This document shows, one piece after another, positions 42,832 to 63,117 of a stretch of DNA of 64,000 bases. The stretch's first letter is position 1. The number at the start of each line of letters is the position of its first letter. The position numbers were made by a program, and so were the translations under genes. Below the pieces are notes generated by a model. The model searched no databases. It saw only the letters and a list, made by a program, of their open reading frames with translations, and was not told where the DNA came from. Source of the stretch: a bacterium (lineage in GTDB: Bacteria > Arandabacterota > Arandabacteria > Arandabacterales > JALGWA01); contig JASFEA010000001.1 of assembly GCA_050125095.1 (NCBI GenBank), positions 1,389 to 65,388 of the forward strand, in the 5' to 3' direction.

Positions 42832-42855
42832 GAGTCAGTGTCCCAGGAGGATATC

Positions 42856-45758: not shown

Positions 45759-45773
45759 AAAGGTGAGGTAACG

Positions 45774-46556: not shown

Positions 46557-46575
46557 ATTAAGGAGGAGAGTTGAG

Positions 46576-48243
46576 ATGGCACTGCAGCCGGGAGCTGACC
46601 CTTATCCCAAGTCAATGCGTGAGACCATAAAGAAGGTCGAAGCGACCCGTTCTCGCCGGATGTCAGAGGAGTTCGACCGGATTACCGCCGACCAGAAGGC
46701 GGACCTCTTGGAGAAGTACCATCCCGACCATAAAAGGGGCGAAATGGTCGAGATAAAGGTTGGCATTAGCAAGGGCGAGAAGACTCCCAAGGAAGTCGAG
46801 AACATACTGCAGGCATATAGCCGCCTCGACCCCAAGAGCTTCGACCTCAGCCGGGTCGACTTCGATGTCGACGTGCTCGTCATAGGCGGCGGCGGCGCCG
46901 GAGCGTCCGCGGCCCTTATGGCGCATGAGCAGGGCGCCAAGGTTCTGCTCACCACCAAGCTCCGTCTGGGCGATGCCAACACCATGATGGCGCAGGGCGG
47001 TATCCAGGCCGCCGACAAGCCCAATGATCCGCCGTCGAGGCACTATCTGGACGTCATAGGCGGCGGCGGATACTACAATATCCCCGAGCTCGTGAAGGCG
47101 CTCGTACTTGACGCGCCCCGCGTCATAGACTGGCTCCAGGGGCTCGGCACCATGTTCGACAAGACGGCCGACGGTACTTACGTCACGATACACGGCGGCG
47201 GCACGTCGAGAAGAAGGATGCACGCCGCGCGCGACTACAGCGGCGCCGAGATAATGAGAACGCTGAGGGACGAGGTCCTGAACCGGGGAATAGAGGTCGT
47301 CGAGTTCACAGCGGCCATCGAACTCCTGAAGGACGATGAAGGCAAGTGCGCCGGCGCCGTGCTCTATAATATGGAAACAGAAGAGCATTTCGTCTGCCGC
47401 GCCAAGACCACGGTGATAGCCACGGGCGGCGCCGGAAGGCTCCATGTCCAGGGCTTCCCGACTACCAACCATTACGGGGCGACGGCCGACGGGCTCGTTC
47501 TCGCCTATCGCGCGGGCGCTCCGTTCATATTCATGGACGCAATTCAGTACCACCCCACCGGGGCCGCATTTCCGGAGCAGATCCTGGGGCTCCTGGTAAC
47601 CGAGAAAGTGCGCGGCATGGGCGCCCAGCTGGTCAACATCGAAGGGGATCAGTTCATTTATCCCCTGGAGACCAGGGACGTTGTTGCGTCGGGCATCATA
47701 CGCGAGTGCGGCGAGAGGAAGAAGGGCATAAGCACGAACACCGGCATGGTCGGCGTGTGGCTGGACTCGCCCATGATAGACCTGAAGCACGGCCCGGGCT
47801 CGGTGAAGCGCGCGCTTCCCGCCATGGTCCGGCAATACGAGCGCTGCGACATAGACATGACCAAGGACCCGATCCTCGTCTTCCCTACGCAGCACTACCA
47901 GAACGGCGGTGTCCTCATCAACGACAAGGCCGAGGCCGGGTTGGCGAACCTCTTCATCGGTGGCGAGGCGGCCGGCGGCATTCACGGCCGTAACAGGCTG
48001 ATGGGGAACTCGCTGCTGGACATACTCGTATTCGGCAGGCGCGCGGGACTCAACGCTGCGGCGCTTTCCAAGAAGACCAAGATAGGCAAACTCACCCTCA
48101 AGCATGTTGGGGAATATCATAAGGATCTCGAGGCGGCAGGCGTTCCGAAGGAGAAGGTCTCGCCGATGCTGCTGCCCGACTACCGCACGCCTGAGACCAA
48201 GGAGAGGCAGAAAGGCCAGGTGCCGCTGGGCGGGGCTGTCTAG
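46576..48243 (+). CDS. Fumarate reductase/succinate dehydrogenase flavoprotein-family FAD oxidoreductase (FrdA/SdhA/TfrA-like), non-covalent FAD type
   Basis: FAD motif DVLVIGGGGAGASAA, QYHPTG (cf. QFHPTG), and active-site GEAAGGIHGRNRLMGNSLLDILVFGRRAG (cf. HGANRLGGNSLLD). There is no His at the covalent-FAD position (GDANTMMAQGG). There is a 90-aa N-terminal extension. SD AAGGAGGAG. Confidence 0.75.
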   Translation: MALQPGADPYPKSMRETIKKVEATRSRRMSEEFDRITADQKADLLEKYHPDHKRGEMVEIKVGISKGEKTPKEVENILQAYSRLDPKSFDLSRVDFDVDVLVIGGGGAGASAALMAHEQGAKVLLTTKLRLGDANTMMAQGGIQAADKPNDPPSRHYLDVIGGGGYYNIPELVKALVLDAPRVIDWLQGLGTMFDKTADGTYVTIHGGGTSRRRMHAARDYSGAEIMRTLRDEVLNRGIEVVEFTAAIELLKDDEGKCAGAVLYNMETEEHFVCRAKTTVIATGGAGRLHVQGFPTTNHYGATADGLVLAYRAGAPFIFMDAIQYHPTGAAFPEQILGLLVTEKVRGMGAQLVNIEGDQFIYPLETRDVVASGIIRECGERKKGISTNTGMVGVWLDSPMIDLKHGPGSVKRALPAMVRQYERCDIDMTKDPILVFPTQHYQNGGVLINDKAEAGLANLFIGGEAAGGIHGRNRLMGNSLLDILVFGRRAGLNAAALSKKTKIGKLTLKHVGEYHKDLEAAGVPKEKVSPMLLPDYRTPETKERQKGQVPLGGAV

Positions 48244-50577: not shown

Positions 50578-51516
50578 ATGCCGTCTGAAGCGCAGCCGCT
50601 CGGGATATCGACGGCCTGGAACGCCGCCAGCCTCAGGGACGGCGAGAAGGTAATCGGCGAGATCCTGCGGGTCGGCTTCCGCTCGATTGAAGTTGACTAT
50701 CGACTGAGCGAAAACGCCGTTCCGCTTCTCAAGCAATACATCCGCGAGGGCAGGCTGACAGTCTCGAGCGTACACAATTTCGCCCCCCTGCCCAGGGGAG
50801 AGGACCCGAAGAATACGGGAGGCGACAAGCTGTCGCTGGCCTCCACGGATGAGGCGGAGAGGCAGGATGCCGTGGCCCTCACGAGGACGACCATAGACCT
50901 CGCAAGAGACCTCGGCGCACGGGCCGTAGTGCTTCACATAGGCCATGTCGAGGTAGGCATACGTTACTTCCAGGAGATCTCGGACATCTGCCGGGTAGAG
51001 GGCGTCAACTCAAAAAAGGCCATGCAGATGAGGGACATGGTGAGGAAGATGCGCAAAGACCTGCGGCCGCCCCACATGGACAGTGTGACGAGGAGCCTCA
51101 AGGAGCTCGTCGCTTATGTCGGCGAGGATGATTTGACGCTCTGTATCGAGAACCGGTATTTTTTCCACCAGATACCGCTCCCGGTCGAGGTTCTCTTTCT
51201 CATTGACGAGATATCCTCCGACCGGCTCAAGTACTGGCACGACATCGGCCACGCGCATGTGCTCGAGGTGCAGGGCTGGCTCCCGCATCTGCCCGCTCTG
51301 GACACTCTGAAGCAGCATCTCTTCGGAGTGCACATTCACGACTCGGTCTTCACCGGAGACCACATAGCGCCCGGCACGGGCGAGATCGACTTCGAGCCGA
51401 TATTCCGCCGGGTGCCCCCCGGGGCCATAAAGGTGATGGAGCTCTCCCCCAAGGTGAGTGAAGATGAGGTATTGAATTCAATAGACTTCCTCTCGAAGTT
51501 CGGCCTGAAGCCCTAG
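50578..51516 (+). CDS. Sugar phosphate isomerase/epimerase (xylose-isomerase-like TIM barrel)
   Basis: AP-endonuclease-2/xylose-isomerase-like TIM-barrel pattern: GFRSIEVDY, VVLHIGH, metal-binding E/D/H spacing (IENRYF...WHDIGHAHV...HIHD). Confidence 0.6.
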   Translation: MPSEAQPLGISTAWNAASLRDGEKVIGEILRVGFRSIEVDYRLSENAVPLLKQYIREGRLTVSSVHNFAPLPRGEDPKNTGGDKLSLASTDEAERQDAVALTRTTIDLARDLGARAVVLHIGHVEVGIRYFQEISDICRVEGVNSKKAMQMRDMVRKMRKDLRPPHMDSVTRSLKELVAYVGEDDLTLCIENRYFFHQIPLPVEVLFLIDEISSDRLKYWHDIGHAHVLEVQGWLPHLPALDTLKQHLFGVHIHDSVFTGDHIAPGTGEIDFEPIFRRVPPGAIKVMELSPKVSEDEVLNSIDFLSKFGLKP

Positions 51517-51898: not shown

Positions 51899-52165
51899 GT
51901 GTTGAGCTATGAGAAGATCAGCGAGATTCTCAAGGCAATAGCGCATCCTACACGTATGGAGATAATCGTCCGGCTCAGGGAGGACGGCTGCAATGTCTCG
52001 GAGATACAGAAAAATCTCGGGCTGCCGCAGTCGACAATATCCCAGCATCTCAGAATACTGAAGAACGCTGGTGTTCTCTCGAGCCGAAGGGAAGGGACGA
52101 AGGTCTGCTACAACGTGGAGATGAAAGAAATCATCAGCATGATAGAAGCACTTGGGAGAGACTGA
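51899..52165 (+). CDS. ArsR/SmtB-family transcriptional regulator (candidate thiol/persulfide-responsive repressor)
   Basis: wHTH: LKAIAHPTRMEIIVRL...CNVSEIQKNLGLPQSTISQHLRILKNAGVLSSRREG. Cys in alpha-3 (DGCNVSE, position equivalent to BigR/SqrR Cys) and a second Cys in the wing (KVCY). The GTG/TTG start at 51899/51902 was chosen. The track ORF from 51785 is far longer than ArsR proteins. Confidence 0.7.
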   Translation: MLSYEKISEILKAIAHPTRMEIIVRLREDGCNVSEIQKNLGLPQSTISQHLRILKNAGVLSSRREGTKVCYNVEMKEIISMIEALGRD

Positions 52166-52346: not shown

Positions 52347-52580
52347 ATGGACGTCAATGTTGACAAGACACTGGACTGCAAGGGCCTTTCCTGTCCCATG
52401 CCGATTCTGAAGCTCGCCAAAGAGATCAAGACGATGGAGAGCTCACAGGTCCTCGAGCTCCTTGGCACCGATCCCGGGTCCAAGGCCGATGTTCCCGGTT
52501 GGTGTGAGAAGACCGGAAACGAGTTCCTCGGTATGGAGGAAGAAGAGGGCGTCTACAAGTTCTATATCCGGAAGTCGTGA
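52347..52580 (+). CDS. tusA: TusA-family sulfur carrier protein
   Basis: 77 aa. LDCKGLSCPMPILKLAKEI contains the CPxP persulfide-carrying motif. Confidence 0.85.
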   Translation: MDVNVDKTLDCKGLSCPMPILKLAKEIKTMESSQVLELLGTDPGSKADVPGWCEKTGNEFLGMEEEEGVYKFYIRKS

Positions 52581-52639: not shown

Positions 52640-53854
52640 TTGATGGGAAACGATGAAAAGGGAGCCTGGCGCCAGCTGTGGAACACGTTCTTCGGCAAGA
52701 CATGGCCGATGTGGGCCGCAGGCATTTTGCTCGCTTTGCTCAACGTCTGTCTGTTCCTGGTTAAATCTCCATGGGGTGGAAGCGGGACGTACATTAACTG
52801 GGGGGAGAACATCTACAGCGGACTCAAGTTGTTTGGCCTCTCCGGCATCAAGCCGGTTCTCTCGCATACCTATGGCCTGCTGGGGTTGTTGACCCTGCTC
52901 GGGGCTTTTGCGGGGGCGCTGTTGGGGCGCGAGTTCGCGCTCAGGATCCCGCCGCCCGGAGAGATGTTTAAAGGGCTCCTGGGCGGCATCCTCATGGCGC
53001 TCGGTGCGACCCTGGGAATCGGCTGCACGATAGGCGGCTTCTTAAGCGGATGGGCAGCCCTCTCGGGCGGCGCCATCATCCTCGCGGTAGGATTCGTAAT
53101 AGGCACCTATATCGCCCTGCGTTATCTGCTCTGGGAGATGGAAAACCTCCCCAGGATGAGTACGGGCAAGAGCTACACCTGGCTGGCGGCTAAGGCAGGC
53201 GGCGGCGTCTGGCAACCCATACTGGGGGTTATGCTGACGGTCTTCCTTCTCGTCCTGTTCGGCCGGCGTTTCCAGAACGACAACGTACTGGCGATGTTCG
53301 CGATTATCGGCCTGGTGATCGGAATCATCCTCCAGCGTTCCCGTTTCTGCATTGTGAGGGCGTTCAGGGAGCCTTTCATGACGGGTGAATCCGAAGCCCC
53401 TCTGGGCGTCATGGTGGCGCTGGCTGTCGGGATATTCGGTTTTACCGTGATCAAATACATGGGCGTGGGCACTTCGACCCCGGGGGCGGCAAGGGTTCTC
53501 GCCATGACCTGGGTGTATCCCCACTTCTGGCTGAGGGCTCTGATCGGCGGAACCATCTTCGGCCTCGGGATGACAGTGGCCGGGGGATGCGCCATCGGCA
53601 CCATATGGAGGGCCGGCGAGGGACAGGTCAAGCTCTGGTTCTCGGCGCTCGGATTCATGCTGTTCGCCCCGATATCGAAGAAGTTCATCGTTCCGGGATT
53701 CGCCCACATTCTCCCTGAGTGGGCCCAGCAGAAAGTGTTCCTTCCTGATTGGTTCGGGTACTGGGGGGCGATGCTTTTATTCTTCGTCCTGATAGTGCTC
53801 TGGTACGTGTTCGTAAAGTGGAATGAGCGGACCGGCAGGTTTTCGGCTGTATAA
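52640..53854 (+). CDS. YeeE/YedE-family inner-membrane transporter (thiosulfate uptake, TsuA-like)
   Basis: Two YeeE/YedE repeats of about 9 TMs, with conserved Cys-containing loops LGIGCTIGGF and AGGCAIGTIWRAGEG. Directly downstream of tusA, the canonical tsuA-tsuB/yeeE-yeeD pairing. Confidence 0.8.
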   Translation: MMGNDEKGAWRQLWNTFFGKTWPMWAAGILLALLNVCLFLVKSPWGGSGTYINWGENIYSGLKLFGLSGIKPVLSHTYGLLGLLTLLGAFAGALLGREFALRIPPPGEMFKGLLGGILMALGATLGIGCTIGGFLSGWAALSGGAIILAVGFVIGTYIALRYLLWEMENLPRMSTGKSYTWLAAKAGGGVWQPILGVMLTVFLLVLFGRRFQNDNVLAMFAIIGLVIGIILQRSRFCIVRAFREPFMTGESEAPLGVMVALAVGIFGFTVIKYMGVGTSTPGAARVLAMTWVYPHFWLRALIGGTIFGLGMTVAGGCAIGTIWRAGEGQVKLWFSALGFMLFAPISKKFIVPGFAHILPEWAQQKVFLPDWFGYWGAMLLFFVLIVLWYVFVKWNERTGRFSAV

Positions 53855-53860
53855 GATGAG

Positions 53861-54382
53861 GTGAGAATGATGAGAATATTCGCACTCATATCGCTGCTTG
53901 CTCTTGTTGTGGCGCTTGCCGGCTGCGGGGGCGCGGGGACCGAAGGGAGAGGGCCCGCTGCATGCTCGGACGCCAAGGAAATGGTCGCCCATGCGAGGGC
54001 GGGAGTGGACGAGATACTGATCGACGAGTTCAATGCCCTGCTGGATAGCGATGAGTACTTCACCATTATCGACGTTCGCGAGCCGGACGAGTACGATGAA
54101 GGGTGCATCCCCGGCGCAATCAACATCCCGCGCGGCATATTGGAGTTCAAGATCGCCGACGAGAAGTACTGGGACAGCGAAGGCCTGTTCGTGCCCGAGA
54201 AGGACGAAGTCTTAATCGTCTACGGCCACAAGGTAGACCGCGGCGTGCTCGCGGCTGAGTCGCTGGTAAGGCTCGGTTACGGCAATGTCAGGCATCTCTA
54301 CGGGGGATGGGTCGTGTGGACCGAGGGTCCGGAGGCTGTGGAAGTAGAGGAAGTGGTTGAAGAGGGCGGTTGCGGAGGCTAG
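53861..54382 (+). CDS. Rhodanese-homology-domain lipoprotein lacking the catalytic Cys (predicted inactive)
   Basis: Lipobox LAGCGG. Single rhodanese fold (IDVREPDEYDEGCIPGAINIP...LIVYGHKVDRG...LYGGWVVW). The active-site loop has Gly where Cys is expected (DNA tac ggc cac). Ends with EEGGCGG. Confidence 0.7.
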   Translation: MRMMRIFALISLLALVVALAGCGGAGTEGRGPAACSDAKEMVAHARAGVDEILIDEFNALLDSDEYFTIIDVREPDEYDEGCIPGAINIPRGILEFKIADEKYWDSEGLFVPEKDEVLIVYGHKVDRGVLAAESLVRLGYGNVRHLYGGWVVWTEGPEAVEVEEVVEEGGCGG

Positions 54383-54586: not shown

Positions 54587-55555
54587 ATGAGAAGTGCGGC
54601 CAGATATTTCCTGGTCTCGATGGCCCTGGTGGCTGTGATCCTGGCCGGTTGTTCCGAGAACACGACCGCGCCCGGAGGTGACGCTTCAGCCACCCTGCGA
54701 GCCTATCTTGAAGACAATGATCTTGACCTTCCCGACATTCTAACCAGCTGGACAATACTGGCTTCCGAAGTGGAGACGAATCCCGCGGCATACTACATCA
54801 TGGACATCCGTCCTGACACGACGTATGCGAGGGGGCATATCGCCGGAGCCGTCAATTCCACGCTTGGCGATATCCTCGACGACGCGGCCAATAGCGGCGG
54901 CAAGCCCATAGTCGTCGCCTGTCTCACGGGCCAGTCCGCGGGGCATGCGATGTTGGCTCTGCGCTTGAGCGGATACCCCGACGCCAGGATCCTGAAGTGG
55001 GGTATGAGCTCGTGGAATGAGGACTTCGACAAGTGGACGGCCAACACCGCCAGTATCGCGGTGGGTCACTCAAACTGGTCTATGGACGCGACGCCGTCCC
55101 CGGGCACCTATGATTATCCGACGCTGATTACCACCGCCACCGACGGGCCGGGCATTCTGGCCGAGCGCGTGGAGGAAATGCTGTCCGGCGGCTTCAAGGG
55201 TGTAGAACCCGACGACGTTCTCGAATCGCCCGGAGACTACTATATCAACCTCTACTGGGAAGAGGATGACGTCACGACTTTCGGTCACATAGACGGCGCT
55301 TACAGGATACAGCCGCTCAGCCTGGCCGGCGACACGTTCAAGCACTACGACCCGGATGAGACCGTCGTCACGTACTGCTGGACGGGTCAGACCTCGTCAG
55401 TGATCACGGCGTACCTCAATATACTCGGGTACGACGCCAGGAGCCTCAAGTTCGGGGCCAATGCGCTCATATACAGCGAGCTGACCAAGCAGTACTGGGA
55501 AGGCTCAGAGGATTTCGAATACACGGTCTCATCACTGGCCTCGATGGCTGAGTGA
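54587..55555 (+). CDS. Tandem-rhodanese-domain lipoprotein (both domains with active-site Cys)
   Basis: AGGAGG lies 6 nt upstream of ATG 54587. Lipobox ILAGCSE. Domain 1 loop VVACLTGQSAG, domain 2 loop VTYCWTGQTSS. The track ORF extends to 54431. Confidence 0.75.
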   Translation: MRSAARYFLVSMALVAVILAGCSENTTAPGGDASATLRAYLEDNDLDLPDILTSWTILASEVETNPAAYYIMDIRPDTTYARGHIAGAVNSTLGDILDDAANSGGKPIVVACLTGQSAGHAMLALRLSGYPDARILKWGMSSWNEDFDKWTANTASIAVGHSNWSMDATPSPGTYDYPTLITTATDGPGILAERVEEMLSGGFKGVEPDDVLESPGDYYINLYWEEDDVTTFGHIDGAYRIQPLSLAGDTFKHYDPDETVVTYCWTGQTSSVITAYLNILGYDARSLKFGANALIYSELTKQYWEGSEDFEYTVSSLASMAE

Positions 55556-55670: not shown

Positions 55671-56714
55671 ATGAGGAAGCCGTGGATCTTGCTGCTGATT
55701 GCAGCGCTGGCTTTACCCGTGGCGGCATCGGGGCAGGGTTGCATGGGGGGTGGATCCGAGGAAGGCGTGAACGTCATAGGGTTCATTCAGCCTCAGTTTG
55801 AGTATCATCCGAATTACGATGACAGCGACCTGTCGGAGCTGACTTTCACATTCCTGAGAGCGAGGCTGGGCGTGACGGGCACTGTTCCCTATGACATCAG
55901 CTACTACTTCGTGATGGAGTTCGGTCCGTTTATGTCGGGCGAGCCGCCGTACATGCTTGACGCGTTCATAACTTATACGCGCCTGCCCTACGCGAATATC
56001 ACGTTGGGGCAATATAAGCAGCCTTTCAGCATGGAGAGGAATATCGCGTGCCATAAGCTGCATACGGTACGACGGGCGAATTTCGTAGAAGCGCTGGCAA
56101 TGGACAGGGACATAGGCCTCATGGCTTTCGGAGAAGTGGCGGAGGGACTCAACTACCACCTGGCATTGATGAACGGCACCGGGAAGAACACGGAAGACGA
56201 CAACAAGGGCAAGGATATTATCGGCCGCGTGACCTATGAGCCGATGGCGTACGTCACACTCGGGGCCGGATTCGTGTCGGGCAACTCCGCGACCGATGTG
56301 GAAGGCGCCGACGACAACACCAAGACGAGATACGGGGCCGATATCGAAGTGCGCTACAGGGACTTTCTTGCTCAGGGCGAGTACATATACGGCAAGGATG
56401 TGGGGGCCTATACGGAAGGCGGAGGCTGCGGCGGCGACCCGGTGGTCAAAGAGGGCTCCATCAAGAGAGACGGCTACTTCATCCTGCTGCTCTACAGGAC
56501 GGAGTATAACCTCGAGCCCGTGGTCAAGTACGAGAGATACAATGCGGACAAAGACGATGCCGAAGACGTGTGGCACGCCTGGACCTTTGGATTCAACTAC
56601 TTCATGAACGACTGGACCAGGATTCAGGCCAATTACATTCGCAGAATAGAGGATTTCGTGCCCGCGCTGAACAACGATGAATTCGTGGTCCAGTTGCAGG
56701 TGGTAATGCAGTAA
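55671..56714 (+). CDS. Anion-selective porin of the OprO/OprP (Porin_O_P) family
   Basis: Signal peptide. LRARLGVTG, LALMNGTGKN and C-terminal ...TRIQANYIRR... match the phosphate/polyphosphate porin family. 16-strand-sized barrel. Confidence 0.65.
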   Translation: MRKPWILLLIAALALPVAASGQGCMGGGSEEGVNVIGFIQPQFEYHPNYDDSDLSELTFTFLRARLGVTGTVPYDISYYFVMEFGPFMSGEPPYMLDAFITYTRLPYANITLGQYKQPFSMERNIACHKLHTVRRANFVEALAMDRDIGLMAFGEVAEGLNYHLALMNGTGKNTEDDNKGKDIIGRVTYEPMAYVTLGAGFVSGNSATDVEGADDNTKTRYGADIEVRYRDFLAQGEYIYGKDVGAYTEGGGCGGDPVVKEGSIKRDGYFILLLYRTEYNLEPVVKYERYNADKDDAEDVWHAWTFGFNYFMNDWTRIQANYIRRIEDFVPALNNDEFVVQLQVVMQ

Positions 56715-56761: not shown

Positions 56762-57628
56762 GTGAAGAAGTTGAGCCGTTACGCGGCGATACTCGTCATG
56801 TCGCTTTTGGTTTCGCAGGCGGCACTTGCCCAGCTCGTGACAGTCGACGAGCTCGCAGAGATGATGGAAAAGGGCGAAGTGGTCGTTGTGTCGGCGAGAT
56901 CGCCCAAGGACTATGAGAAAGTGCATATACCGGGCGCCGTGAATCTCTGGCACAAGGACCTGTATAAAGAGGGCGATATCCAGGCGCTTCTTAAGAGCCC
57001 CGAGGAGATAGCGGAAATACTCGGAAGCCTGGGGATAAGCGCGGATAAGACCATCGTCGTCTATGACAGCGGCAAGGCCAAATTCGCCGGGCGGATTTAC
57101 TGGATTCTCAAATACATGGGCGCACAGGACGTCAATATACTCGACGGCCATATGAAGATGTGGCGGAAGGGGCGCAAGCCGGTCACCAAGGATGTAACGG
57201 AAATTACCGCGGCCGAGTTCGTCCCCGCCCCGGTGAATTCGATTTACGCGTCGATAGATTACGTGAAGTCTCATCTCGGCAAGCCGGATTTCGTGTTGCT
57301 CGACGCCAGAGCCGAGGATGAATACGACGGCAAGAAGGGCGAGACCAAGAGGAAGGGGCATATACCCGGGTCTGTGCGCCTGGATTATGTGGAAGTCCTG
57401 AATGAGGACGGCACCATGAAGTCGAAGGCCGACCTCACCAAGGTCTTCGCCGACGCCGGGATCACACCCGACAAGGATGTTGTCATATATTGCGAGACAA
57501 GCGTGCGCGCGGGAATCGTGTTCCTGGCCCTGGACTCTATACTCGGTTATCCCAAAGTCAGGGTGTACGACGGCGCGCTGTATGAATGGTCCGCCGATGC
57601 CGGCAATGAGGTCGAAGCAAAGAAATAG
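56762..57628 (+). CDS. Periplasmic two-domain rhodanese (thiosulfate sulfurtransferase-like)
   Basis: GTG start. Signal peptide ILVMSLLVSQAALAQ. Inactive N-domain (VVYDSGKAKFAG) plus catalytic C-domain with a 6-residue loop IYCETSVRAG, as in TST/SseA-type enzymes. Confidence 0.8.
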   Translation: MKKLSRYAAILVMSLLVSQAALAQLVTVDELAEMMEKGEVVVVSARSPKDYEKVHIPGAVNLWHKDLYKEGDIQALLKSPEEIAEILGSLGISADKTIVVYDSGKAKFAGRIYWILKYMGAQDVNILDGHMKMWRKGRKPVTKDVTEITAAEFVPAPVNSIYASIDYVKSHLGKPDFVLLDARAEDEYDGKKGETKRKGHIPGSVRLDYVEVLNEDGTMKSKADLTKVFADAGITPDKDVVIYCETSVRAGIVFLALDSILGYPKVRVYDGALYEWSADAGNEVEAKK

Positions 57629-57654: not shown

Positions 57655-58014
57655 ATGGGCAAAACGGCAATCACCATCAATGGTGCGGGCGTGCAGAACG
57701 TATTTCCGGCTGTCACCATAGCCGTCTCGGCGGCTGCAAGCGGTGACGAGGTCATTCTCTTCTTCACCCCCGGCGGGGCTCCCGCGATGGTAAAGGGAGC
57801 GCTGGAGAAGCTGAATGAGGAAGCCAAGAATCTGCCGGATCTGATGGAGATGATAGAGGGTCTTAAGATGCTCAATGCCAGATTCCTGGTATGCGAGCTG
57901 GCCTTCGGGGTACACGGATTCGGTGAAGAGGATCTAAGGGAAGGCGCTGAAGTTGTCGGCGCGACCACGTTCGTGGGCGCGGCCGATGGCGCAGGCCTGA
58001 CGCTTTCTTTCTGA
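57655..58014 (+). CDS. DsrE/DsrF-like sulfur-relay protein
   Basis: 119 aa, DsrE fold pattern. TINGAG...VILFFT...ARFLVCELAF with the conserved Cys in the CxxAF context. Confidence 0.7.
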   Translation: MGKTAITINGAGVQNVFPAVTIAVSAAASGDEVILFFTPGGAPAMVKGALEKLNEEAKNLPDLMEMIEGLKMLNARFLVCELAFGVHGFGEEDLREGAEVVGATTFVGAADGAGLTLSF

Positions 58015-58044: not shown

Positions 58045-58269
58045 ATGGCGACAGAACAACTCGATTGTCTGGGACTGAAGTGCCCGCAGCCTATACTGAA
58101 AGTCGTGGCGAAGATACCGTCCATGCAGGCGGGCGACATCCTTGAAGTTCTGGCGGACTGCCCGTCCTTCCCGACGGACATGAAGGCCTGGTGCGAGAAG
58201 ACGGGCAAGGTCCTGCTCATGCTCACGACCGACGGGGCAGGCAAGCATACGGCGCAGATCCAGCTATAA
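58045..58269 (+). CDS. TusA-family sulfur carrier protein (second copy)
   Basis: 74 aa. LDCLGLKCPQPILKVVAKI CPxP motif. 30 nt downstream of the DsrE-like gene, the dsrE-tusA pairing known from sulfur-oxidiser hdr loci. Confidence 0.8.
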   Translation: MATEQLDCLGLKCPQPILKVVAKIPSMQAGDILEVLADCPSFPTDMKAWCEKTGKVLLMLTTDGAGKHTAQIQL

Positions 58270-58391: not shown

Positions 58392-58832
58392 ATGAGCGAA
58401 GGTCAGCAAAAAGCGGAGTTCACCCCGAAGATAGTGGGTTTTCTCTGCAACTGGTGCACTTACGCGGCCGCCGATCTCGCCGGTTCGACCAAACTCGAGA
58501 TATCGCCGTCCCTCACCGTGATCCGGGTGATGTGCTCCAGCCGGGTAGACCATAACCTGGTTCTCACGACCTTTTTCCGGGGGGCGGACGGCATTCTGAT
58601 AGCGGGCTGTCATCCCGGTGACTGCCATTACGGCAAGGGCAATTATTACGCTAGACGCAGGTACGCGGTGCTCAAGAGGGTGATGGAGGGGCTGGGGCTG
58701 GAGCCGGAGAGACTCCAATTGTCGTGGGTATCGGCCTCTGAAGGCAATCGCTATGCCGATGTAGTGAACGCATTTTCGGAGAAGATAAAGGCGCTGGGGC
58801 CGAATCCCATAAGCGGCAGGGCGGACTTCTGA
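58392..58832 (+). CDS. MvhD-like (methyl-viologen-reducing hydrogenase delta subunit family) Fe-S protein
   Basis: FLCNWCTYAAADLAG...VMCSSRV...GADGILIAGCHPGDCHY is the MvhD/FlxD signature. Confidence 0.8.
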   Translation: MSEGQQKAEFTPKIVGFLCNWCTYAAADLAGSTKLEISPSLTVIRVMCSSRVDHNLVLTTFFRGADGILIAGCHPGDCHYGKGNYYARRRYAVLKRVMEGLGLEPERLQLSWVSASEGNRYADVVNAFSEKIKALGPNPISGRADF

Positions 58833-58847
58833 CGGAGGATACGCGAG

Positions 58848-60176
58848 ATGCACCATGAGAATGTAGTTGTGGTGGGAGCCGGACTCGCCGGGATGAAGGC
58901 GAGCCTCCTGCTTGCCCAGGCGGGCAAGAAGGTCCATCTCGTTGAGACTCTTCCCCTGATAGGCGGCAAGACCATCAAGAATGAGGAGAGCTTCCCGAAC
59001 CTGGAATGCTCGACATGCCTCGTGGCGCCCATACAGCAGGCCGTGCTTCAGAATCCGGACATAGAAGTCATGACGATGAGCGCTGTGGAGAAGGTAGAGG
59101 GAGACGAGGGCGACTACACCGTGACAGTCAAGAAGTCCGCGAGGTACGTGAAGGTGGCGGACTGTATCGGTTGTGGGATGTGTTATGAGCCGTGCCCCGT
59201 TTCCGTGTCCAACGAATGGGAAGAAAACCTTGGTGAGAGAAAGGCGATTTACGTGCCGTGCCCGGGTTCGCTGCCCAATGTGCCGACCGTGGATCCGGAA
59301 CACTGCCTGAAACTGAGCGGCAAGGGGGAATGCACCGCCTGTGTGGAGGCCTGCATGTTCGGAGCCGTCAATCTGGAGGACAGGGACGAGACAGTCAAAA
59401 TAGAGGCCGGCGCCATGATCGTGTCCACCGGCGCTGGCGTCTTCGACGTTTCGAAGCTCCCCGACCTCGGCTACGGCGAGTATCCCGGGGTCTACACGCC
59501 CTTCGAGTTCGAGAGGCTTTTCGCCTCAAACGGCCCCACGCTCGGGGAACTCAAGTTGCGGGGCACGGAGAACGCGCCCGGGAAGATAGCGATCATCCAC
59601 TGCGTGGGCCGGAAAGAGTGCGGGTACTGCTCGGGCGTATGCTGTATGTATTCTTTCAAGTTCGCGCACTTCCTCAAGAAGAAACTGCCGGAGGCGTCGG
59701 TTTACAATCTGCACTCGGATATCTGCGTGCCCGACAAGACCTATCAGAAGTTCTTCGATGGCGTCAACGGCAAGCATTCGGAGATGATTTACAACTCGTC
59801 GATGGAGAGTCTCAAGGTAACGGGTTCGGGCGACGGCCTGCAGGTCACCTATCTCGACGAGGCCGGCGCGGAGAAGAACCTCGAGGTCGATATGGTCATA
59901 TTGGCCGCCGCCATGGTCCCGGAAGAAGGGACACGGAATCTGGCCGAAGTGCTCGGGATAGACCTGGACGCCGCGGGCTTCTTCAAAGTGCGTGACGACG
60001 ACATAGCCTCGGTGGAGACCTCCAGGAAGGGGATATTCGTTGCCGGCACGGCTGAGGGCCCCAAGGACAGCCAGTCTTCCGTAATACAGGCCGATGCGGC
60101 CGTGGGCAAGGTCCTGGCCTTTCTGGAGTCCTTGAAGCCGCAGCCGGAAGAGGCGGCGGCGGGGGGACAGGGTTGA
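58848..60176 (+). CDS. HdrA/QmoA-like FAD oxidoreductase with one ferredoxin insert (no N-terminal 4-Cys domain)
   Basis: FAD-binding VVVVGAGLAGMKASLLLAQAGKKVHLVE...IGG. Ferredoxin motifs CIGCGMCYEPCP and CTACVEACMFGAV. HdrA-type motif HCVGRKECGYCSGVCCMYSFK. Confidence 0.75.
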   Translation: MHHENVVVVGAGLAGMKASLLLAQAGKKVHLVETLPLIGGKTIKNEESFPNLECSTCLVAPIQQAVLQNPDIEVMTMSAVEKVEGDEGDYTVTVKKSARYVKVADCIGCGMCYEPCPVSVSNEWEENLGERKAIYVPCPGSLPNVPTVDPEHCLKLSGKGECTACVEACMFGAVNLEDRDETVKIEAGAMIVSTGAGVFDVSKLPDLGYGEYPGVYTPFEFERLFASNGPTLGELKLRGTENAPGKIAIIHCVGRKECGYCSGVCCMYSFKFAHFLKKKLPEASVYNLHSDICVPDKTYQKFFDGVNGKHSEMIYNSSMESLKVTGSGDGLQVTYLDEAGAEKNLEVDMVILAAAMVPEEGTRNLAEVLGIDLDAAGFFKVRDDDIASVETSRKGIFVAGTAEGPKDSQSSVIQADAAVGKVLAFLESLKPQPEEAAAGGQG

Positions 60177-60190
60177 TGCAGGAAGCGTCT

Positions 60191-61873
60191 ATGAAAGCGA
60201 AAATCGGAGTATATGTCTGCGAATGCGGGCCCAATATCGGCCAGAGCATTGACATACCGAGGGTTCTCGAGTCGATTCCAGCCCTGGAAGGCTATGAGGA
60301 CGTAGAACTTGTCCCGAAGAGTTACGGCCTGCTCTGCTCTCCGGACGGCAAGGAACACCTGAAGAAGGAAATCCAGGAGAACGGATACACGCATCTTGTC
60401 ATAGCGGCCTGTTCGCCAAGGGACCACGATTCGACCTTCATGGGCATATGCAAGCAGGCCGGACTCAATCCCTATCTCTATAAGATCATAAACATACGCG
60501 AGCACTGCGGCTGGATAATACATGACAAAGACGCGGCAACCGAAAAGGCGATCCAGTACATAAGCGGGGGCATCAGCAGGGTCCTATATCAGTCGGAGCT
60601 CTTCGAGAGGCAGCTTGAGATTACCCCCGACGTGCTCGTCATAGGCGGCGGCGTGGCGGGCATAGAAACGGCGCTCTCGCTCGCCGGCGAGGACAGGAAA
60701 GTCTATCTGGTGGAGAGGGCGGAAGAACTGGGGGGAAGCGCGGCCCGGTTCGCCTCGCTTCTTCCCCGCCAGCAAGGCGGAGCGGACCTGATAAGAAGCA
60801 AAATCGAGGCGGTCGGAGAGAACGAGCATATCCGGGTCCTCCTCAATACCGAGGTCGAGAGCTCGATAGGGTTCCTGGGCAATTTTGAGGTTGTGCTTGC
60901 AGGCAAAAGTGACGGCGAGAAGACAGATATCAAGGTCGGGGCGATAGTGGTGGCCACGGGCTGCCGCATGTCGGACCCGAGGAGCTTCGCGGGCATAGAA
61001 TACGCCGACTCGGATGAGGTCTATACGTCGCCTGAGGTTGAGAAGATGAATACCGGCGGGGCGATTACCCTCCGCTCGGGCGAGAAGCCTGCATCGGTGG
61101 CGCTTGTCCACTGCGTGGGCCGGGGCGAGAAGGGCTACTGCTCACGGGTCTGCTGCAACTACATGATGAAGATCGCCGGCTATTTCAAGAAACAGTCGAA
61201 GGAAACCAAAGTAACTGAGTTCTTCGTTGATATGTGCGTTCCCCACAAGGCCGACCAGAAATTCTTCGACGAATCGGCGCGCCTTGGTATCGATTTCAAG
61301 CGTGTCCGTAAGATCGGACTTTCCGGCACCAGAGTCGAATTCAAGGGGATGGACGGCAAAAAGCAGCAAATGGACTTCGATATGGTTGTCCTGGCTTCGG
61401 CGTTGGAGCCCTCCGAGGGCACGGAGGCGCTGGCAGGGCTTCTGGAGATAGACCTCGATGATAGGGGATTCTACCGGGAGGCGCATCATACCACCGATCC
61501 GGTGGCCACTTCCATCGACGGCATTTTCGTGGCCGGTGCCTCACAGGGCCCCAGGGACATATCCGATTCGATATTGCTGGCCCAGGCCTCGGCGGGGCGA
61601 ATCCGCGCCCAGCTGATACCGGGAGGCAAGATAGTGCCCGAAGTCAAGGTGTCCGAGATCCTCGAAGCCTATTGCACGGGATGCAAGACCTGTCTCGAAG
61701 TGTGCGGTTATGGCGCAATCTACTTCGACGATCAGAAGGGAATATCGGTGGTGAACGAGGCGGTTTGCAGGGGTTGCGGCAATTGCTTCGGCAGTTGCCC
61801 GTCCGGGGCCCTCCGGACGAAGCACTTCACGAACAGCCAGCTCCTGCGGGAGGTAACCGAGGCGCTGAAATAG
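60191..61873 (+). CDS. HdrA-like FAD/Fe-S oxidoreductase (second copy, with N-terminal Cys cluster and C-terminal ferredoxin)
   Basis: KIGVYVCECGPNI...LLCSPDG...IAACSPRD...REHCGW (HdrA N-domain), FAD motif VLVIGGGVAGIETAL, HCVGRGEKGYCSRVCCNYMMK, C-terminal CTGCKTCLEVCG/CRGCGNCFGSCP. The ATG at 60191 is preceded by AGGAAG. The track ORF is from 60173. Confidence 0.8.
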   Translation: MKAKIGVYVCECGPNIGQSIDIPRVLESIPALEGYEDVELVPKSYGLLCSPDGKEHLKKEIQENGYTHLVIAACSPRDHDSTFMGICKQAGLNPYLYKIINIREHCGWIIHDKDAATEKAIQYISGGISRVLYQSELFERQLEITPDVLVIGGGVAGIETALSLAGEDRKVYLVERAEELGGSAARFASLLPRQQGGADLIRSKIEAVGENEHIRVLLNTEVESSIGFLGNFEVVLAGKSDGEKTDIKVGAIVVATGCRMSDPRSFAGIEYADSDEVYTSPEVEKMNTGGAITLRSGEKPASVALVHCVGRGEKGYCSRVCCNYMMKIAGYFKKQSKETKVTEFFVDMCVPHKADQKFFDESARLGIDFKRVRKIGLSGTRVEFKGMDGKKQQMDFDMVVLASALEPSEGTEALAGLLEIDLDDRGFYREAHHTTDPVATSIDGIFVAGASQGPRDISDSILLAQASAGRIRAQLIPGGKIVPEVKVSEILEAYCTGCKTCLEVCGYGAIYFDDQKGISVVNEAVCRGCGNCFGSCPSGALRTKHFTNSQLLREVTEALK

Positions 61874-61950
61874 GTCTGCCCGGGACGCCGCCCGTAAGGG
61901 GAGGGCCGGGCATGGAGATTGAGAGTGGTTAGAGCATTTGGAGAGGCGAT

Positions 61951-63117
61951 TTGATAAGCGATCCTGAAAAGCAAGGTGCCGCCATGAAGGCCGCCGGGGG
62001 GATAGAGGACGCAGTGCGGGGCTTCCTGCGCGAGGCGCTCAAGAGCTCCGCGGCCGATGCCGTGCTCGTGCCTGTGAGGACCCCGGCTGAGGATTCTTAC
62101 GCCTGGATACTGACCAATAATCCCTCGGTTCTGGACAATGCCAGGCCCGCGGCCCCCACGATGCCCGTTCAGGGCGCCAAGGCCCTTAAGAGCCTTACCA
62201 GGAAGGGAGAGGGCAAGGCCAGGATCATAGCCGTCATGAGACCCTGCGAGATCAGAGCGGCCATCGAGCTGTACAAGCTCAACCAGGTGCATCTGGACAA
62301 TATCACCCTCATAAGCTATGACTGTGTCGGAGCTGTCCCTCTTCAGGATTACATAAGTGACCCTGCGGGCAGTGAAAAGCGCTTCGATTCGATGCTCAAG
62401 GCAGGGAAGACGGATGACTCCGCGGTCAAACCCGTATGCAGGATATGCGTCGACTTCTCTCTGGTGGATTCGGACATACATATCGGGCTCATCGGGCAGT
62501 CGGGCGGTTCGGCCCTGCTGGTTCCCAACAGCGAGAAGGGGCAGGCCCTGCTCGAATCCATGGGAATGGCCTGCGGGGAGGACATCTCCGGATGGACCAA
62601 GACCGTAGCCCAGATGAAGGTGGAGAGAGAGGGCGCCAGAGCCAGGGCGCTCGCGGAAATGGGGACGAGGCTTCAGGGCTTCGACGGGCTCAGCGCGACT
62701 TTCGCGGATTGTATCGGTTGCCATAATTGCCAGAGCGTGTGCCCCATCTGTTACTGCAGGCAGTGCTACTTCGACTCCGATGCGTCAAGGCAGGACGCGG
62801 CCTCTATTCTGGATACCGCGATCGAACGCGGCGGCGTAGCTTTCCCGGGCAACAGGGTAATGTTCCATACAGGGAGAATGGCGCATATGAGCCTCTCCTG
62901 CGTTTCATGCGGGCAGTGCTCTGACGCTTGCCCGGTCTCTATTCCGGTAGCCGACATCTTCAGTTATATGGCCGGCCTCACACAGCCGACCTTCGAATAC
63001 ACGGCGGGCAGGAACGACGGCGAGCCGCTTCCTCTCAGGCATTTCAAGGAAAAAGAAGTCGAAAAAGTCCACGAAATCGTCAAGGGCGCCGAGGAAGAGG
63101 AGGTAGCTCATGAGTAG
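61951..63117 (+). CDS. FrhB/FdhB-family (coenzyme F420 hydrogenase/dehydrogenase beta-subunit-like) Fe-S flavoprotein
   Basis: FrhB N-domain followed by the C-domain Cys pattern CIGCHNCQSVCPICYC and CVSCGQCSDACP. Confidence 0.7.
   Translation: MISDPEKQGAAMKAAGGIEDAVRGFLREALKSSAADAVLVPVRTPAEDSYAWILTNNPSVLDNARPAAPTMPVQGAKALKSLTRKGEGKARIIAVMRPCEIRAAIELYKLNQVHLDNITLISYDCVGAVPLQDYISDPAGSEKRFDSMLKAGKTDDSAVKPVCRICVDFSLVDSDIHIGLIGQSGGSALLVPNSEKGQALLESMGMACGEDISGWTKTVAQMKVEREGARARALAEMGTRLQGFDGLSATFADCIGCHNCQSVCPICYCRQCYFDSDASRQDAASILDTAIERGGVAFPGNRVMFHTGRMAHMSLSCVSCGQCSDACPVSIPVADIFSYMAGLTQPTFEYTAGRNDGEPLPLRHFKEKEVEKVHEIVKGAEEEEVAHE

Follow-up and report, generated by a model that had tools for sequence, protein, structure and literature searches.

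The closest precedent for the locus described here is the ExtI/ExtH pair of Geobacter sulfurreducens. ExtI, a Porin_O_P-type protein, takes up selenite and controls where ExtH, a rhodanese lipoprotein, is localised (PMC5877670; pmid 31229265 as cited in PMC13510729). The selenite/tellurite reduction cluster to which ExtI belongs also encodes a polysulfide-reducing selenoenzyme, ExtKL/MccSep. In Wolinella succinogenes, Sud is a periplasmic polysulfide-sulfur transferase of the rhodanese type, with a single catalytic Cys, that serves PsrABC; to our knowledge, it acts alone in the periplasm and has no assigned outer-membrane partner. The passage of insoluble or anionic forms of sulfur across the outer membrane is recognised as a gap in knowledge: the polysulfide route into the Geobacter periplasm 'remains unclear' (PMC13510729), and the 'special outer-membrane proteins' with reactive thiols that were proposed as activators of S8 were never confirmed (PMC10045233, PMC3440390).

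Within the window, by which we mean the whole stretch of 64,000 nucleotides that was analysed, the existence of a porin gene of 347 aa was confirmed for the ORF at 55671-56714 on the + strand. The features of its neighbourhood and of the porin itself are as follows:

51899..52165, +, ArsR-type HTH regulator of 88 aa at the head of the cluster (Pfam HTH_5, E=9.6e-14)
52347..52580, +, tusA, TusA-family sulfur carrier of 77 aa (Pfam TusA, E=1.5e-27)
52643..53854, +, yeeE, YeeE/YedE-family inner-membrane sulfur (thiosulfate/selenium) transporter (Pfam Sulf_transp, E=2e-46)
53870..54382, +, Rhd173, small rhodanese lipoprotein (Pfam Rhodanese, E=3.6e-18)
54587..55555, +, Rhd322, tandem-rhodanese lipoprotein (Pfam Rhodanese, two stretches, E=1.1e-21)
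55671..56714, +, porin, Cys-triad member of Porin_O_P (Pfam, AlphaFold2 model and alignment)
55671..55733, +, signal peptide of the porin, residues 1-21 (predicted cleavage)
55734..55742, +, Q22-G23-C24 at the mature N-terminus of the porin, on a flexible Gly-rich periplasmic arm (invariant, 81/81)
56049..56051, +, C127 of the porin, in constriction loop L3, aligned with OprP Ser125, a residue of the central phosphate site (82/82)
56418..56435, +, G250-G255 'GGGCGG' of the porin, at the tip of a long polar hairpin, loop L6 (strands 232-249 and 258-275)
56762..57628, +, Rhd288, soluble periplasmic tandem rhodanese (Pfam Rhodanese, E=2.3e-39)
57655..58014, +, DsrE-like sulfur-carrier protein, syntenic (Pfam DrsE_2 and DsrE)
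58045..58269, +, second TusA-family carrier (Pfam TusA, E=3.5e-18)
58392..63117, +, start of an Hdr-like cytoplasmic cluster with FlpD/MvhD, two HdrA-like flavoproteins and an Fe-S protein (Pfam FlpD, E=9.6e-51)

A previous sequence-only reading had placed the porin between two periplasmic rhodaneses and about 2 kb from yeeE-tusA, and both statements proved correct: the upstream rhodanese is a lipoprotein (54587-55555), the downstream one is soluble and periplasmic (56762-57628), and the end of tusA-yeeE lies 1.8 kb upstream of the porin start. The genes of the module are all on the + strand and separated by short gaps. A scan for promoters and terminators between 51.5 and 58.5 kb gave nothing above chance, which fits one or a few operons and is uninformative. 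The Hdr-like cluster runs on past 63117, and its two flavoproteins scored 357 and 416 bits as HdrA2-like, below the cutoff. The YeeE protein was also below the NCBIfam cutoffs, with 120 bits against YedE/FdhT and 94 bits against TsuA, and as the selenium-type YedE/FdhT model is slightly the better of the two, the chalcogen handled could be selenium. The window TusA also resembles YedF.

The porin is a genuine member of the OprO/OprP family of outer-membrane porins. Its match to Pfam Porin_O_P (PF07396; E=3.6e-14, 53.3 bits vs. a cutoff of 20.9) spans residues 42-325 and covers positions 10-344 of the 370 of the profile, and its AlphaFold2 model is a 16-strand barrel (pLDDT 86.7, pTM 0.82) with a long L3 loop (residues 117-145) that contains a short helix. 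Both results agree with the family assignment made in the sequence-only reading. OprP and OprO were among the best structural matches of the model in Foldseek (TM 0.71-0.72), with general porins reaching TM values nearly as high. Identity to OprP/OprO is 15-16%; a PDB search with the single sequence gave a marginal match to OprP (E=0.027), and a profile search was required for the alignment, with PDB 2o4v and 4rjw as references. Cleavage by signal peptidase I is predicted just before the invariant Q22, where the homologues read '...YA|QGC...'. By its sequence, the protein belongs to an unnamed subfamily of Porin_O_P that is flanked by rhodaneses and carries three invariant cysteines, of which no published description was found.

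The comparison with OprP and OprO covered R34, R59, R60, Y62/F62, D94, Y114/D114, K121, S124, S125, K126 and R133; for the ladder residues of the C-terminal half, no alignment was obtained. In the profile alignment, OprP R34, R59, K121, S124 and S125 are not conserved in the subfamily: the position of R34 is taken by Phe (F38 in the window), that of R59 by Asn in most homologues and by L62 in the window, that of K121 mostly by Leu and that of S124 by Ala or Pro. The OprP/OprO central phosphate site and Arg ladder are thus not reproduced, as counterparts are kept for no more than R60, R133 and the D94 region, namely R63, R135 and D97. Together with R65 and K116, which stand at the positions of OprP Y62 and Y114, these residues are invariant in the subfamily, and all five are also kept in relatives linked to pst genes. 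The ladder is therefore non-discriminating, and the Arg/Lys comparison, to which the sequence-only reading had looked for specificity, yielded nothing particular to this porin. A special cationic constriction formed by R65 and K116 was likewise ruled out, as the pst-linked relatives have the same residues.

A relative is encoded in 438 species genomes, which are spread over FCB phyla. The loci were fetched from 80 species-representative genomes along with 35 metagenome loci, about 120 in total from roughly ten FCB phyla. Wherever the contig permits, the order Rhd322-porin-Rhd288 was held in the 80 fetched and 35 metagenome loci, with Rhd173 upstream of Rhd322 in most of them, so that the typical arrangement consists of a rhodanese lipoprotein of ~170 aa, a tandem-rhodanese lipoprotein of ~320 aa, the porin and a periplasmic rhodanese of ~285 aa. 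Given its recurrence in ~120 independent loci, the rhodanese/porin/rhodanese arrangement is not due to chance. Two sets of partners accompany it. One consists of TusA-YeeE plus the DsrE-TusA-FlpD-HdrA (Hdr-like) genes; tusA is syntenic in the loci carrying YeeE, an ArsR-type regulator is kept upstream of TusA-YeeE in many loci, and the relatives keep the Hdr-like gene order of the window. The other, found in ~20 loci, is a PhsA/PsrABC-like molybdoenzyme, best matched by thiosulfate reductase PhsA (462 bits), together with Fe-S and NrfD subunits. Among the flanking genes, Crp/Fnr regulators (26/148) and c-type cytochromes are over-represented, and in certain loci the module has no recognisable sulfur enzyme close by. 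Marinilabiliales with a fermentative or anaerobic habit make up many of the carriers, Chlorobiota contribute one locus, and cultured hosts include Ancylomarina, Marinifilum, Maribellus and Draconibacterium aestuarii.

No pst genes were detected near the subfamily porins in the ~120 loci. Their presence beside relatives was one of the findings named in advance as speaking against a sulfur role, and within the subfamily it did not appear. Relatives of ~30% identity that have 0-1 Cys and no rhodanese neighbours lie directly upstream of PstS-PstC-PstA-PstB (pstSCAB). The predicted dedication of the porin to a sulfur pathway, and not to phosphate, is thus strongly supported by synteny, and for the rhodanese-linked subfamily the database name 'phosphate-selective porin' is misleading.

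At the level of the alignments, the subfamily is defined by the three invariant cysteines C24, C127 and C253. Within the superfamily, the triad is found only in the top-scoring tier (335 bits or more) and is absent from outgroups scoring 268 bits or less; at the position of C127, the pst-linked relatives have Asp. The arm bearing C24 is poorly ordered in the model (residues 14-28, pLDDT < 50), and the tip of the L6 hairpin, residues 251-260, has a mean pLDDT of 61, which means moderate model confidence. Porin topology would place this hairpin, whose distal residues are polar, on the extracellular side. Position 253 is Cys in 76 of 82 sequences and a TGA codon in the other six; in the window it is encoded by TGC (56427-56429).

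A similar cysteine is found at the end of Rhd173. In this protein, an LAGC lipobox is combined with one rhodanese domain, and the sequence closes with an acidic linker and GGCGG (...EEGGCGG), the Cys of which is encoded by TGC at 54371-54373. The tail, of median length 25 aa and median net charge -5, keeps this Cys in 44 of 46 homologues, which end G-C-(G)(G), and the remaining two have TGA (Sec). The Cys of the rhodanese loop is kept in 39/46 homologues and replaced by Gly in the clade of the window, so that the window Rhd173 is devoid of the rhodanese catalytic Cys. Threading of the acidic tail through a basic pore was considered and set aside as speculative; the conserved acidic residues of the barrel are about as many as the basic ones.

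Rhd322, also with an LAGC lipobox, has a catalytic Cys in both domains, and among its 72 homologues the lipobox Cys was found in 72, C112 in 70 and C264 in 72. In 39/72 homologues, the lipobox Cys is followed by a K/S-(D/E)2-3 motif that resembles the Bacteroidota lipoprotein export signal (LES), defined as a polar or basic residue and then at least two D/E right after the Cys (PMC5080379), a signal validated in Bacteroidota only. The window Rhd322 has only 'SEN' after its lipobox Cys (C-S-E-N) and departs from the strict LES pattern; among the Rhd173 homologues, the LES-like motif was seen in 0/46. The third rhodanese, Rhd288, has a signal-peptidase-I signal and an inactive N-terminal domain (Asp); its catalytic Cys lies in the C-terminal domain, where C244 is present in 75/75 homologues. 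Its NCBIfam scores, 129 bits as SseA-like and 75 bits as ExtH (ExtH cutoff 200), are both below cutoff.

The TGA codons of the porin were found at 22 loci (the six among the 82 sequences and 16 further ones), one in frame per porin, exactly at C253, and the frame of the porin continues past them. Downstream of the TGA, 13 of 17 distinct sequences form a hairpin in which a perfect stem of 5 bp or more carries an AGGU, UGGU, GGU or AGUU loop that begins at nt 20-22, compared to 5/76 in Cys-type controls (Fisher p=6e-9), and the folding z-scores of both groups were completely separated (mean -1.9 for the Sec loci vs. +0.6 for the controls). This SECIS-like hairpin shows compensatory changes in two stem pairs and an invariant G21-G22-U23. 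In four lineages, the tail of Rhd173 reads GG-TGA-GAT-stop followed by a hairpin, which is missing from the Cys-type relatives, and the tail Sec was found only alongside a porin Sec.

A global reassignment of UGA (code 4 or 25) was considered and rejected: each porin contains just one TGA, which invariably falls on the Cys column, the hairpins are specific to TGA loci, and other long ORFs of the same loci end in TGA without an open continuation, TGA being a true stop for these other genes.

A separate observation concerns FlpD, which at two of the loci (L069 and L097) has TGA at its conserved Cys (AG-U-HPGDCH), a position that we take to be the known MvhD/FlpD Sec site; this gives indirect support for the use of Sec in these genomes.

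The sequences thus point to two probable families of selenoproteins, a Porin_O_P porin and a rhodanese ending in GG-U-D. Neither was present in the 2026 selenoprotein catalogue (PMC13188914), where the word 'porin' appears nowhere and the five catalogued rhodanese selenoprotein forms all have other motifs. The combination of the Cys triad with Cys/Sec exchange points to covalent thiol or selenol chemistry and not mere anion selectivity, so that the porin is probably more than a passive anion pore and acts on sulfur through reactive thiols. The proposal of a thiosulfate-type anion channel in the sequence-only reading is in this way retained in part: synteny upholds its dedication to a sulfur pathway, whereas anion selectivity as the whole explanation is opposed by the triad and by the Cys/Sec exchange.

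The reading that we favour, to which we would assign a probability of about 55%, is that the porin and the three rhodanese proteins form an outer-membrane module for the capture and relay of sulfane sulfur, by which external zero-valent or sulfane sulfur would be imported. What we infer here comprises the identity of the substrate, the direction of transport, the topology of the proteins and the transfer of sulfur from Cys to Cys. The porin would be the outer-membrane core of a four-protein module with Rhd173, Rhd322 and Rhd288, and polysulfide, elemental sulfur or thiosulfate its putative substrates. The barrel keeps the OprP-superfamily anion-binding core (R63, R65, D97, K116 and R135), and the cysteines would be arranged at three depths, with C253 at the tip of the extracellular hairpin, C127 at the constriction and C24 on the periplasmic arm. 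The thiolate at the hairpin tip, or the selenolate in the Sec lineages, would attack the S-S bond of the external substrate, possibly helped by Rhd322, whose signal resembles one for surface export in many Bacteroidota. The sulfane sulfur could then move through the constriction to the periplasmic arm as a persulfide or a bound anion, be received by the Cys/Sec tail of Rhd173 and pass to the periplasmic rhodaneses. A periplasmic PhsA/PsrABC-type reductase would be one outlet; the other, that of the window, would be import by YeeE-TusA followed by DsrE-TusA and the cytoplasmic Hdr-like complex. The narrower proposal that the barrel itself catalyses sulfur transfer, with a relay of three Cys/Sec from surface hairpin to constriction, periplasmic arm and rhodaneses, is more tentative, and we would rate it somewhat short of even odds.

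Several other explanations have to be weighed against this module. Thiosulfate or polysulfide could simply diffuse through the porin as a passive, anion-selective channel with an OprP-like basic pore, the rhodaneses acting only later in the periplasm and the cysteines being incidental or structural. Membership and fold of Porin_O_P, the invariant anion-site residues of the superfamily (R63, R65, D97, K116 and R135) and the strong synteny with sulfur genes would all suit such a channel; unexplained by it are the three invariant cysteines exclusive to the rhodanese-linked subfamily, the Sec at one porin Cys in several lineages and the parallel Cys/Sec exchange in the Rhd173 tail, and Sec is hardly ever used outside catalytic redox sites (PMC13188914, PMC1794560), which makes this explanation unlikely. 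Should the cysteines be structural or regulatory, a disulfide or selenylsulfide could staple L6 to L3 as a redox gate, or tether the lipoprotein tail. They do lie in loops that gate other porins, and the finding of tail Sec only with porin Sec fits a pairing of both residues, but three cysteines leave one unpaired, flexible Gly-rich contexts and a terminal GGCGG identical to that of SoxY are typical of carriers and not of staples (PMC6067878), and the obligate co-occurrence with three sulfurtransferases also speaks against it; we consider this role improbable. An ordinary phosphate or polyphosphate porin of the OprP/OprO type scarcely enters into consideration: despite the Pfam match to Porin_O_P and the name given to homologues by some database sources, pst genes are absent from ~120 loci whereas they adjoin the Cys-less relatives, five of the OprP residues compared are not conserved, and identity to OprP/OprO is as low as stated above.

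Regarding the element and the direction of transport, the system could take up selenium (selenite or elemental selenium) in the manner of ExtI/ExtH, so as to supply, by way of YedE-type import, the synthesis of selenoproteins or selenouridine, or else to serve detoxification. ExtI is the sole NCBIfam model matched by the porin (41-59 bits), the YeeE protein scores best with the selenium-type YedE/FdhT model, the TusA resembles YedF, and Geobacter ExtI takes up selenite (PMC5877670). However, the scores of ExtI, YedE/FdhT and YedF type are all far under the family cutoffs, enzymes of respiratory scale (PhsA/Psr-like, Hdr-like, DsrE) are linked in most loci, and most carriers have Cys at both positions, and we hold uptake of selenium to be just as improbable as structural cysteines. 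Export, in which the module would expel periplasmic sulfane sulfur from the cell, as in extracellular sulfur deposition during sulfide oxidation or disproportionation, would be compatible with a direction that is not fixed by sequence, with the locus from Chlorobiota (L032) and with the occurrence of Hdr-like/DsrE/TusA sets in sulfur oxidisers as well (PMC6067878, PMC11129491); uptake agrees better with the linked genes for a PhsA/Psr-type reductase and for YeeE, an importer, and the fermentative or anaerobic habit of many carriers also argues against export, which is in our view slightly more doubtful still.

This module is a concrete and widespread candidate for the passage of sulfur across the outer membrane, it can be tested in the cultured hosts, and it makes predictions at the level of sequence, which name three particular cysteines, a tail serving as carrier and a rhodanese that is likely to be at the surface. 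If the relay is true, this porin would be the 'outer-membrane thiol protein' long postulated to activate and import elemental sulfur or polysulfide; among OprO/P-type porins it would moreover be the first selenoprotein, paired with a new rhodanese selenoprotein with penultimate Sec.

Compared to the described systems, the window porin shares with ExtI the Porin_O_P superfamily, an adjacent gene for a rhodanese-like lipoprotein and a link to chalcogens and not to phosphate (PMC5877670; PMC13510729). It is not an ExtI equivalog, since it scores 41 bits with the ExtI model (NF040900) and its relatives 32-59 bits, against a cutoff of 150. In addition, ExtI has ~403 aa and belongs to a cluster of multiheme cytochromes (extJKLMNOPQS), whereas the module of the window has three rhodaneses and no cytochromes; genes for cytochrome c flank some of the module loci, but no multiheme cytochrome cluster lies inside the module. 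Unlike the ExtI cluster, its partners are TusA-YeeE, DsrE and Hdr or PhsA/Psr. With Pseudomonas aeruginosa OprP and OprO (2o4v, 4rjw), the porin shares the Pfam family and the 16-strand fold, but OprP-type proteins are devoid of the N-terminal QGC arm and of the GGGCGG hairpin, and differ from it further by the low identity, the invariant Cys at the position of S125 and the absence of pst linkage in the subfamily.

The Rhd173 tail is comparable to the arm of SoxY, whose C-terminal GGCGG cysteine binds the sulfur substrate covalently (PMC6067878): both have Gly-Cys-Gly on a flexible end, and the GGGCGG loop of the porin is similar. In contrast to SoxY, Rhd173 has a rhodanese domain and is lipid-anchored, and neither SoxZ, SoxXAB nor other Sox genes were seen in the module cluster; because of this domain and the lack of Sox genes, it is not a member of SoxY, and the resemblance would be functional only. 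Rhd288, a periplasmic rhodanese with a single catalytic Cys that accompanies a Psr-type reductase in ~20 loci, is in these respects like Sud. Finally, selenoproteins are known among outer-membrane barrels (the GSU2204/MtrB-PioB family and the TonB-dependent receptor of the FCYXU type) and among proteins with Sec near the C-terminus (UXX-star and SaoC, where only a few residues separate Sec from the bacterial stop codon) (PMC13188914), and these set the precedent for Sec in exported barrels and next to stops, the two places at which it is predicted here.

The porin gene lies, as the sequence-only reading had it, between rhodanese genes, although the neighbourhood is richer than was described there and includes a second upstream rhodanese lipoprotein, Rhd173:

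53870-54382, + strand: Rhd173, small rhodanese lipoprotein, upstream of the porin
54587-55555, + strand: Rhd322, tandem-rhodanese lipoprotein, upstream of the porin
55671-56714, + strand: porin, 347 aa
56762-57628, + strand: Rhd288, soluble periplasmic rhodanese with a signal peptide, downstream of the porin

In a profile search the porin matched Pfam Porin_O_P with 53 bits (cutoff 20.9). An AlphaFold2 model with an input alignment of 61 homologues (pLDDT 86.7, pTM 0.82) showed 16 strands, short periplasmic turns and a long L3, and Foldseek placed OprP and OprO among its top matches (TM 0.71-0.72, identity 15-16%), with general porins scoring almost equally. Genes for ArsR, TusA and YeeE precede the rhodanese lipoproteins, and genes for DsrE, TusA, FlpD and HdrA-like proteins follow Rhd288.

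A cytoplasmic cluster conserved in many phyla continues after DsrE-TusA (58392-63117 and beyond; L001:12722-21044, L-numbers being fetched loci with porin relatives), in the order FlpD-HdrA(442)-HdrA(566)-FeS(388)-FeS(364)-FlpD-HdrA-like(~1020 aa); it is not the lipoate-dependent sHdr set. What looks like a second Hdr-like set lies upstream of the module at 42412-48243 (CCG-domain-like protein, 315 aa; HdrA-like, 657 aa; 4Fe-4S protein, 260 aa; FAD_binding_2 flavoprotein, 555 aa), followed by an EF-G paralogue (48359-50446) and an AP_endonuc_2/xylose-isomerase-like protein (50578-51516).

Relatives of the porin are encoded by 438 species-representative genomes, and a length of ~345 aa was kept throughout the best 120 protein-database matches. 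The named taxa belong throughout to the FCB group: Eisenbacteria, Krumholzibacteriota, Neomarinimicrobiota, KSB1, Calditrichota, Cloacimonadota, Chlorobiota, Zixibacteria and many Bacteroidota, including the cultured Ancylomarina, Marinifilum, Maribellus and Draconibacterium aestuarii. When synteny was surveyed by phmmer on six-frame ORFs of 80 fetched genome loci, the order Rhd322-porin-Rhd288 was found wherever the contig extended far enough, with Rhd173 upstream in most loci, and the same held for 35 metagenome loci. The partner genes fell into three classes: (i) TusA-YeeE upstream and DsrE-TusA-FlpD-HdrA downstream, to which the window belongs; (ii) a PhsA-like molybdoenzyme with 4Fe-4S and NrfD subunits (~20 loci), the molybdoenzyme scoring highest against the thiosulfate reductase PhsA (462 bits, short of the equivalog cutoff); and (iii) no obvious partners. 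In a Pfam census of 148 flanking genes, 26 encoded Crp/Fnr regulators, c-type cytochromes were also present, and none encoded a pst component.

Distant Porin_O_P relatives (~30% identity) were detected in a metagenome scan (L122-L124, L127, L129); these porins have 0-1 Cys and no rhodanese neighbours. A PstS-type binding protein is the next gene after the porin in L123, L124, L127 and L129, with permease genes also in L123 and L127 and an ABC ATPase in L123, together making up pstSCAB. Thus, phosphate-type members of the superfamily occur in similar environments and are linked to pst. The Cys-less genes upstream of pst genes (L123:3779-8496, L124, L127, L129) are apparently genuine phosphate porins and constitute a useful outgroup. 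In contrast to them, the window subfamily was never pst-linked, and the sulfur role proposed for the porin is well supported by synteny together with this contrast.

The ladder residues were compared through a profile alignment to OprP (2o4v) and OprO (4rjw), which covered the N-terminal half only (E about 2e-10) and in which chain numbering equals literature numbering, as printed. OprP R60 and R133 and the D94 region are conserved (window R63, R135 and D97). R34 is lost (F38), R59 corresponds to L62 (Asn in most homologues), Y62 (F62 in OprO) is changed to R65, Y114 (D114 in OprO) to K116 and S124 to Ala/Pro; K121 corresponds to position 123, mostly Leu, and S125 to C127, an invariant Cys. 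R63, R65, D97, K116 and R135 are kept just as well in the relatives linked to pst, which have Asp at position 127. Therefore, the ladder is not identical to that of OprP, but its differences are not specific to the subfamily. An anion-binding core has plausibly been kept, and the ladder comparison alone gives no sign of thiosulfate or polysulfide selectivity; the anion selectivity from which a sulfur substrate had been argued is not demonstrable from these residues.

At the sequence level, the subfamily is defined instead by a cysteine triad, C24/C127/C253. Among 82 non-redundant porin sequences, C24 was found in 81/81 and C127 in 82/82, whereas position 253 was Cys in 76 and TGA in 6. C24 belongs to an invariant Q22-G23-C24 that comes right after the cleavage site predicted for signal peptidase I ('...A|QGC...'); the Gly-rich arm carrying it is disordered in the model. 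C127 is a residue of L3 and aligns with Ser125 in the central site of OprP. The tip of the longest modelled hairpin (strands 232-249 and 258-275, with polar distal halves) is an almost invariant GGGCGG that contains C253; as both termini and the short turns are periplasmic in standard porin topology, this hairpin is predicted to be extracellular loop L6. Across 9,522 members of the Porin_O_P superfamily (retrieved from 1.8 billion cluster representatives), the triad was present only in the top tier (>=335 bits) and absent from the next-best proteins (<=268 bits).

A single in-frame TGA was located exactly at the C253 codon (equivalent to window 56427-56429) in 6 genome and 16 metagenome loci, 22 in total (L028:1806, L041:4435, L054:4268, L083:3230, L065:10721, L087:10766; L088-L102, L121), from several lineages including Cloacimonadota and Bacteroidales, with the frame conserved beyond it to the normal C-terminus. 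Global recoding of UGA was excluded, since other long ORFs in the same loci end in TGA without open continuation. A SECIS-like hairpin (perfect, >=5 bp, with a 3-4-nt loop starting nt 20-22 from the U of UGA) followed the TGA in 13/17 distinct sequences, compared to only 5/76 Cys-type controls (Fisher p=6e-9). Its loops are AGGU, UGGU, GGU or AGUU and its stems vary (CGUGG, CGUGC, CCAGGU, CCGAGG, GUGUG, CAAUAUC); in the in-register alignment 98% of cells pair, two stem pairs show compensatory changes (U:A to A:U, G:C to C:G) and G21-G22-U23 is invariant. Folding z-scores ranged from -0.9 to -3.4 at six TGA loci vs. -0.6 to +2.3 in 14 Cys controls, without overlap. The C253-TGA porins are probably Porin_O_P selenoproteins, and four truncated cluster representatives ending in '...GG' suggest further ones.

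In two Cys-type Prolixibacteraceae loci (L023, L073), the SECIS position of Sec-type loci, ~19 nt downstream of the codon equivalent to Cys253, is occupied by a perfect 7-bp hairpin (CCCUGAA-GUUG-UUCAGGG), which may be a relic of Sec-to-Cys conversion or due to chance. In L069 and L097, FlpD has a TGA at the conserved Cys of 'AGCHPGDCH', which we take to be the known MvhD/FlpD Sec site.

A comparable exchange was found in Rhd173. The lipobox Cys is present in 46/46 homologues, and the tail after the rhodanese domain (median 25 aa, median net charge -5) ends in ...GGCGG, ...GGCG or ...GGC in 44/46. The other two, and two more metagenome variants, end in GG-TGA-GAT-stop (L054:2341-2343, L083:1385-1387, L094:2842-2844, L101:2676-2678; equivalent to window codon 54371-54373), a reading that would put Sec second from the end; bacterial examples of Sec near the C-terminus exist (PMC13188914). 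At 15-17 nt after this TGA, in the 3' untranslated region, there is a hairpin (e.g. CCACAUA-GGU-UAUGUGG, ACACAUG-AGUU-CAUGUGU, UGCAUG-AGUU-CAUGCA), which is absent in Cys-type relatives of the same clade. Tail-Sec was found only in genomes that also have the Sec porin. The rhodanese-loop Cys is kept in 39/46 homologues; in the window's Eisenbacteria/Krumholzibacteriota-like clade (7/46) this catalytic residue, 122, is Gly and the C-terminal GGCGG Cys remains, so that the domain may be only a scaffold for a carrier tail.

Rhd322 has its lipobox Cys in 72/72 homologues and the catalytic Cys of its two domains in 70/72 and 72/72; the single catalytic Cys of Rhd288 is present in 75/75. K/S-(D/E)2-3 directly follows the lipobox Cys in 39/72 Rhd322 but in 0/46 Rhd173 homologues, and is similar to the lipoprotein export signal of Bacteroidota, in which two or more acidic residues come after a polar or basic one (PMC5080379). 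This difference suggests that Rhd322 is surface-exposed and Rhd173 periplasm-facing, at least in Bacteroidota; the window Rhd322 has only 'C-S-E-N' (54650-54664).

The reading that best joins these facts would be capture and relay of sulfane sulfur at the outer membrane, for which we infer the substrate, the direction, the topology and every transfer step. A reactive Cys/Sec on the protruding surface hairpin (C253), possibly served by the surface tandem rhodanese, would be followed by relay cysteines at the anion-binding constriction and on the periplasmic N-terminal arm, with participation of the Cys/Sec carrier tail of the periplasm-facing lipoprotein. The soluble Sud-like rhodanese would then have two outlets, a PhsA/Psr-type reductase, or YeeE-TusA import towards DsrE-TusA-Hdr-like chemistry. 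That at least two of these residues would be chemically active rather than structural is argued most strongly by the Cys/Sec exchanges, Sec being nearly restricted to catalytic redox sites (PMC13188914, PMC1794560). The Cys/Sec triad points to a mechanism more unusual than the anion selectivity first proposed.

Full-text searches of open-access papers for porins with rhodanese, polysulfide or selenoprotein yielded no description of the rhodanese-porin module. The 2026 selenoproteome review nowhere mentions a porin, and its five rhodanese selenoprotein forms have motifs different from the Rhd173 tail (PMC13188914). Import of sulfur compounds by an OprO/P-like porin beside ttr genes was raised as a speculation in a 2026 proteomics paper (PMC13490349). 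The Rhd173 tail itself resembles SoxY, in which sulfur is known to bind covalently to the Cys of the C-terminal GGCGG (PMC6067878). Among characterised systems, the nearest is ExtI/ExtH of Geobacter, likewise a Porin_O_P porin with a rhodanese lipoprotein. ExtI is not phosphate-regulated, is needed for selenite/tellurite reduction (PMC5877670) and is reported to affect the localisation of ExtH (PMC5877670; PMID 31229265 as cited in PMC13510729); its cluster also encodes the polysulfide-reducing selenoenzyme MccSep, for which the authors described the outer-membrane route of polysulfide as unknown (PMC13510729). The window porin is not an equivalog of ExtI (41 bits vs. a cutoff of 150), and no NCBIfam model covers its subfamily. 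The pairing of a Porin_O_P porin with rhodanese lipoproteins is known from ExtI/ExtH, and there is a substantial chance that the window porin is mechanistically new.
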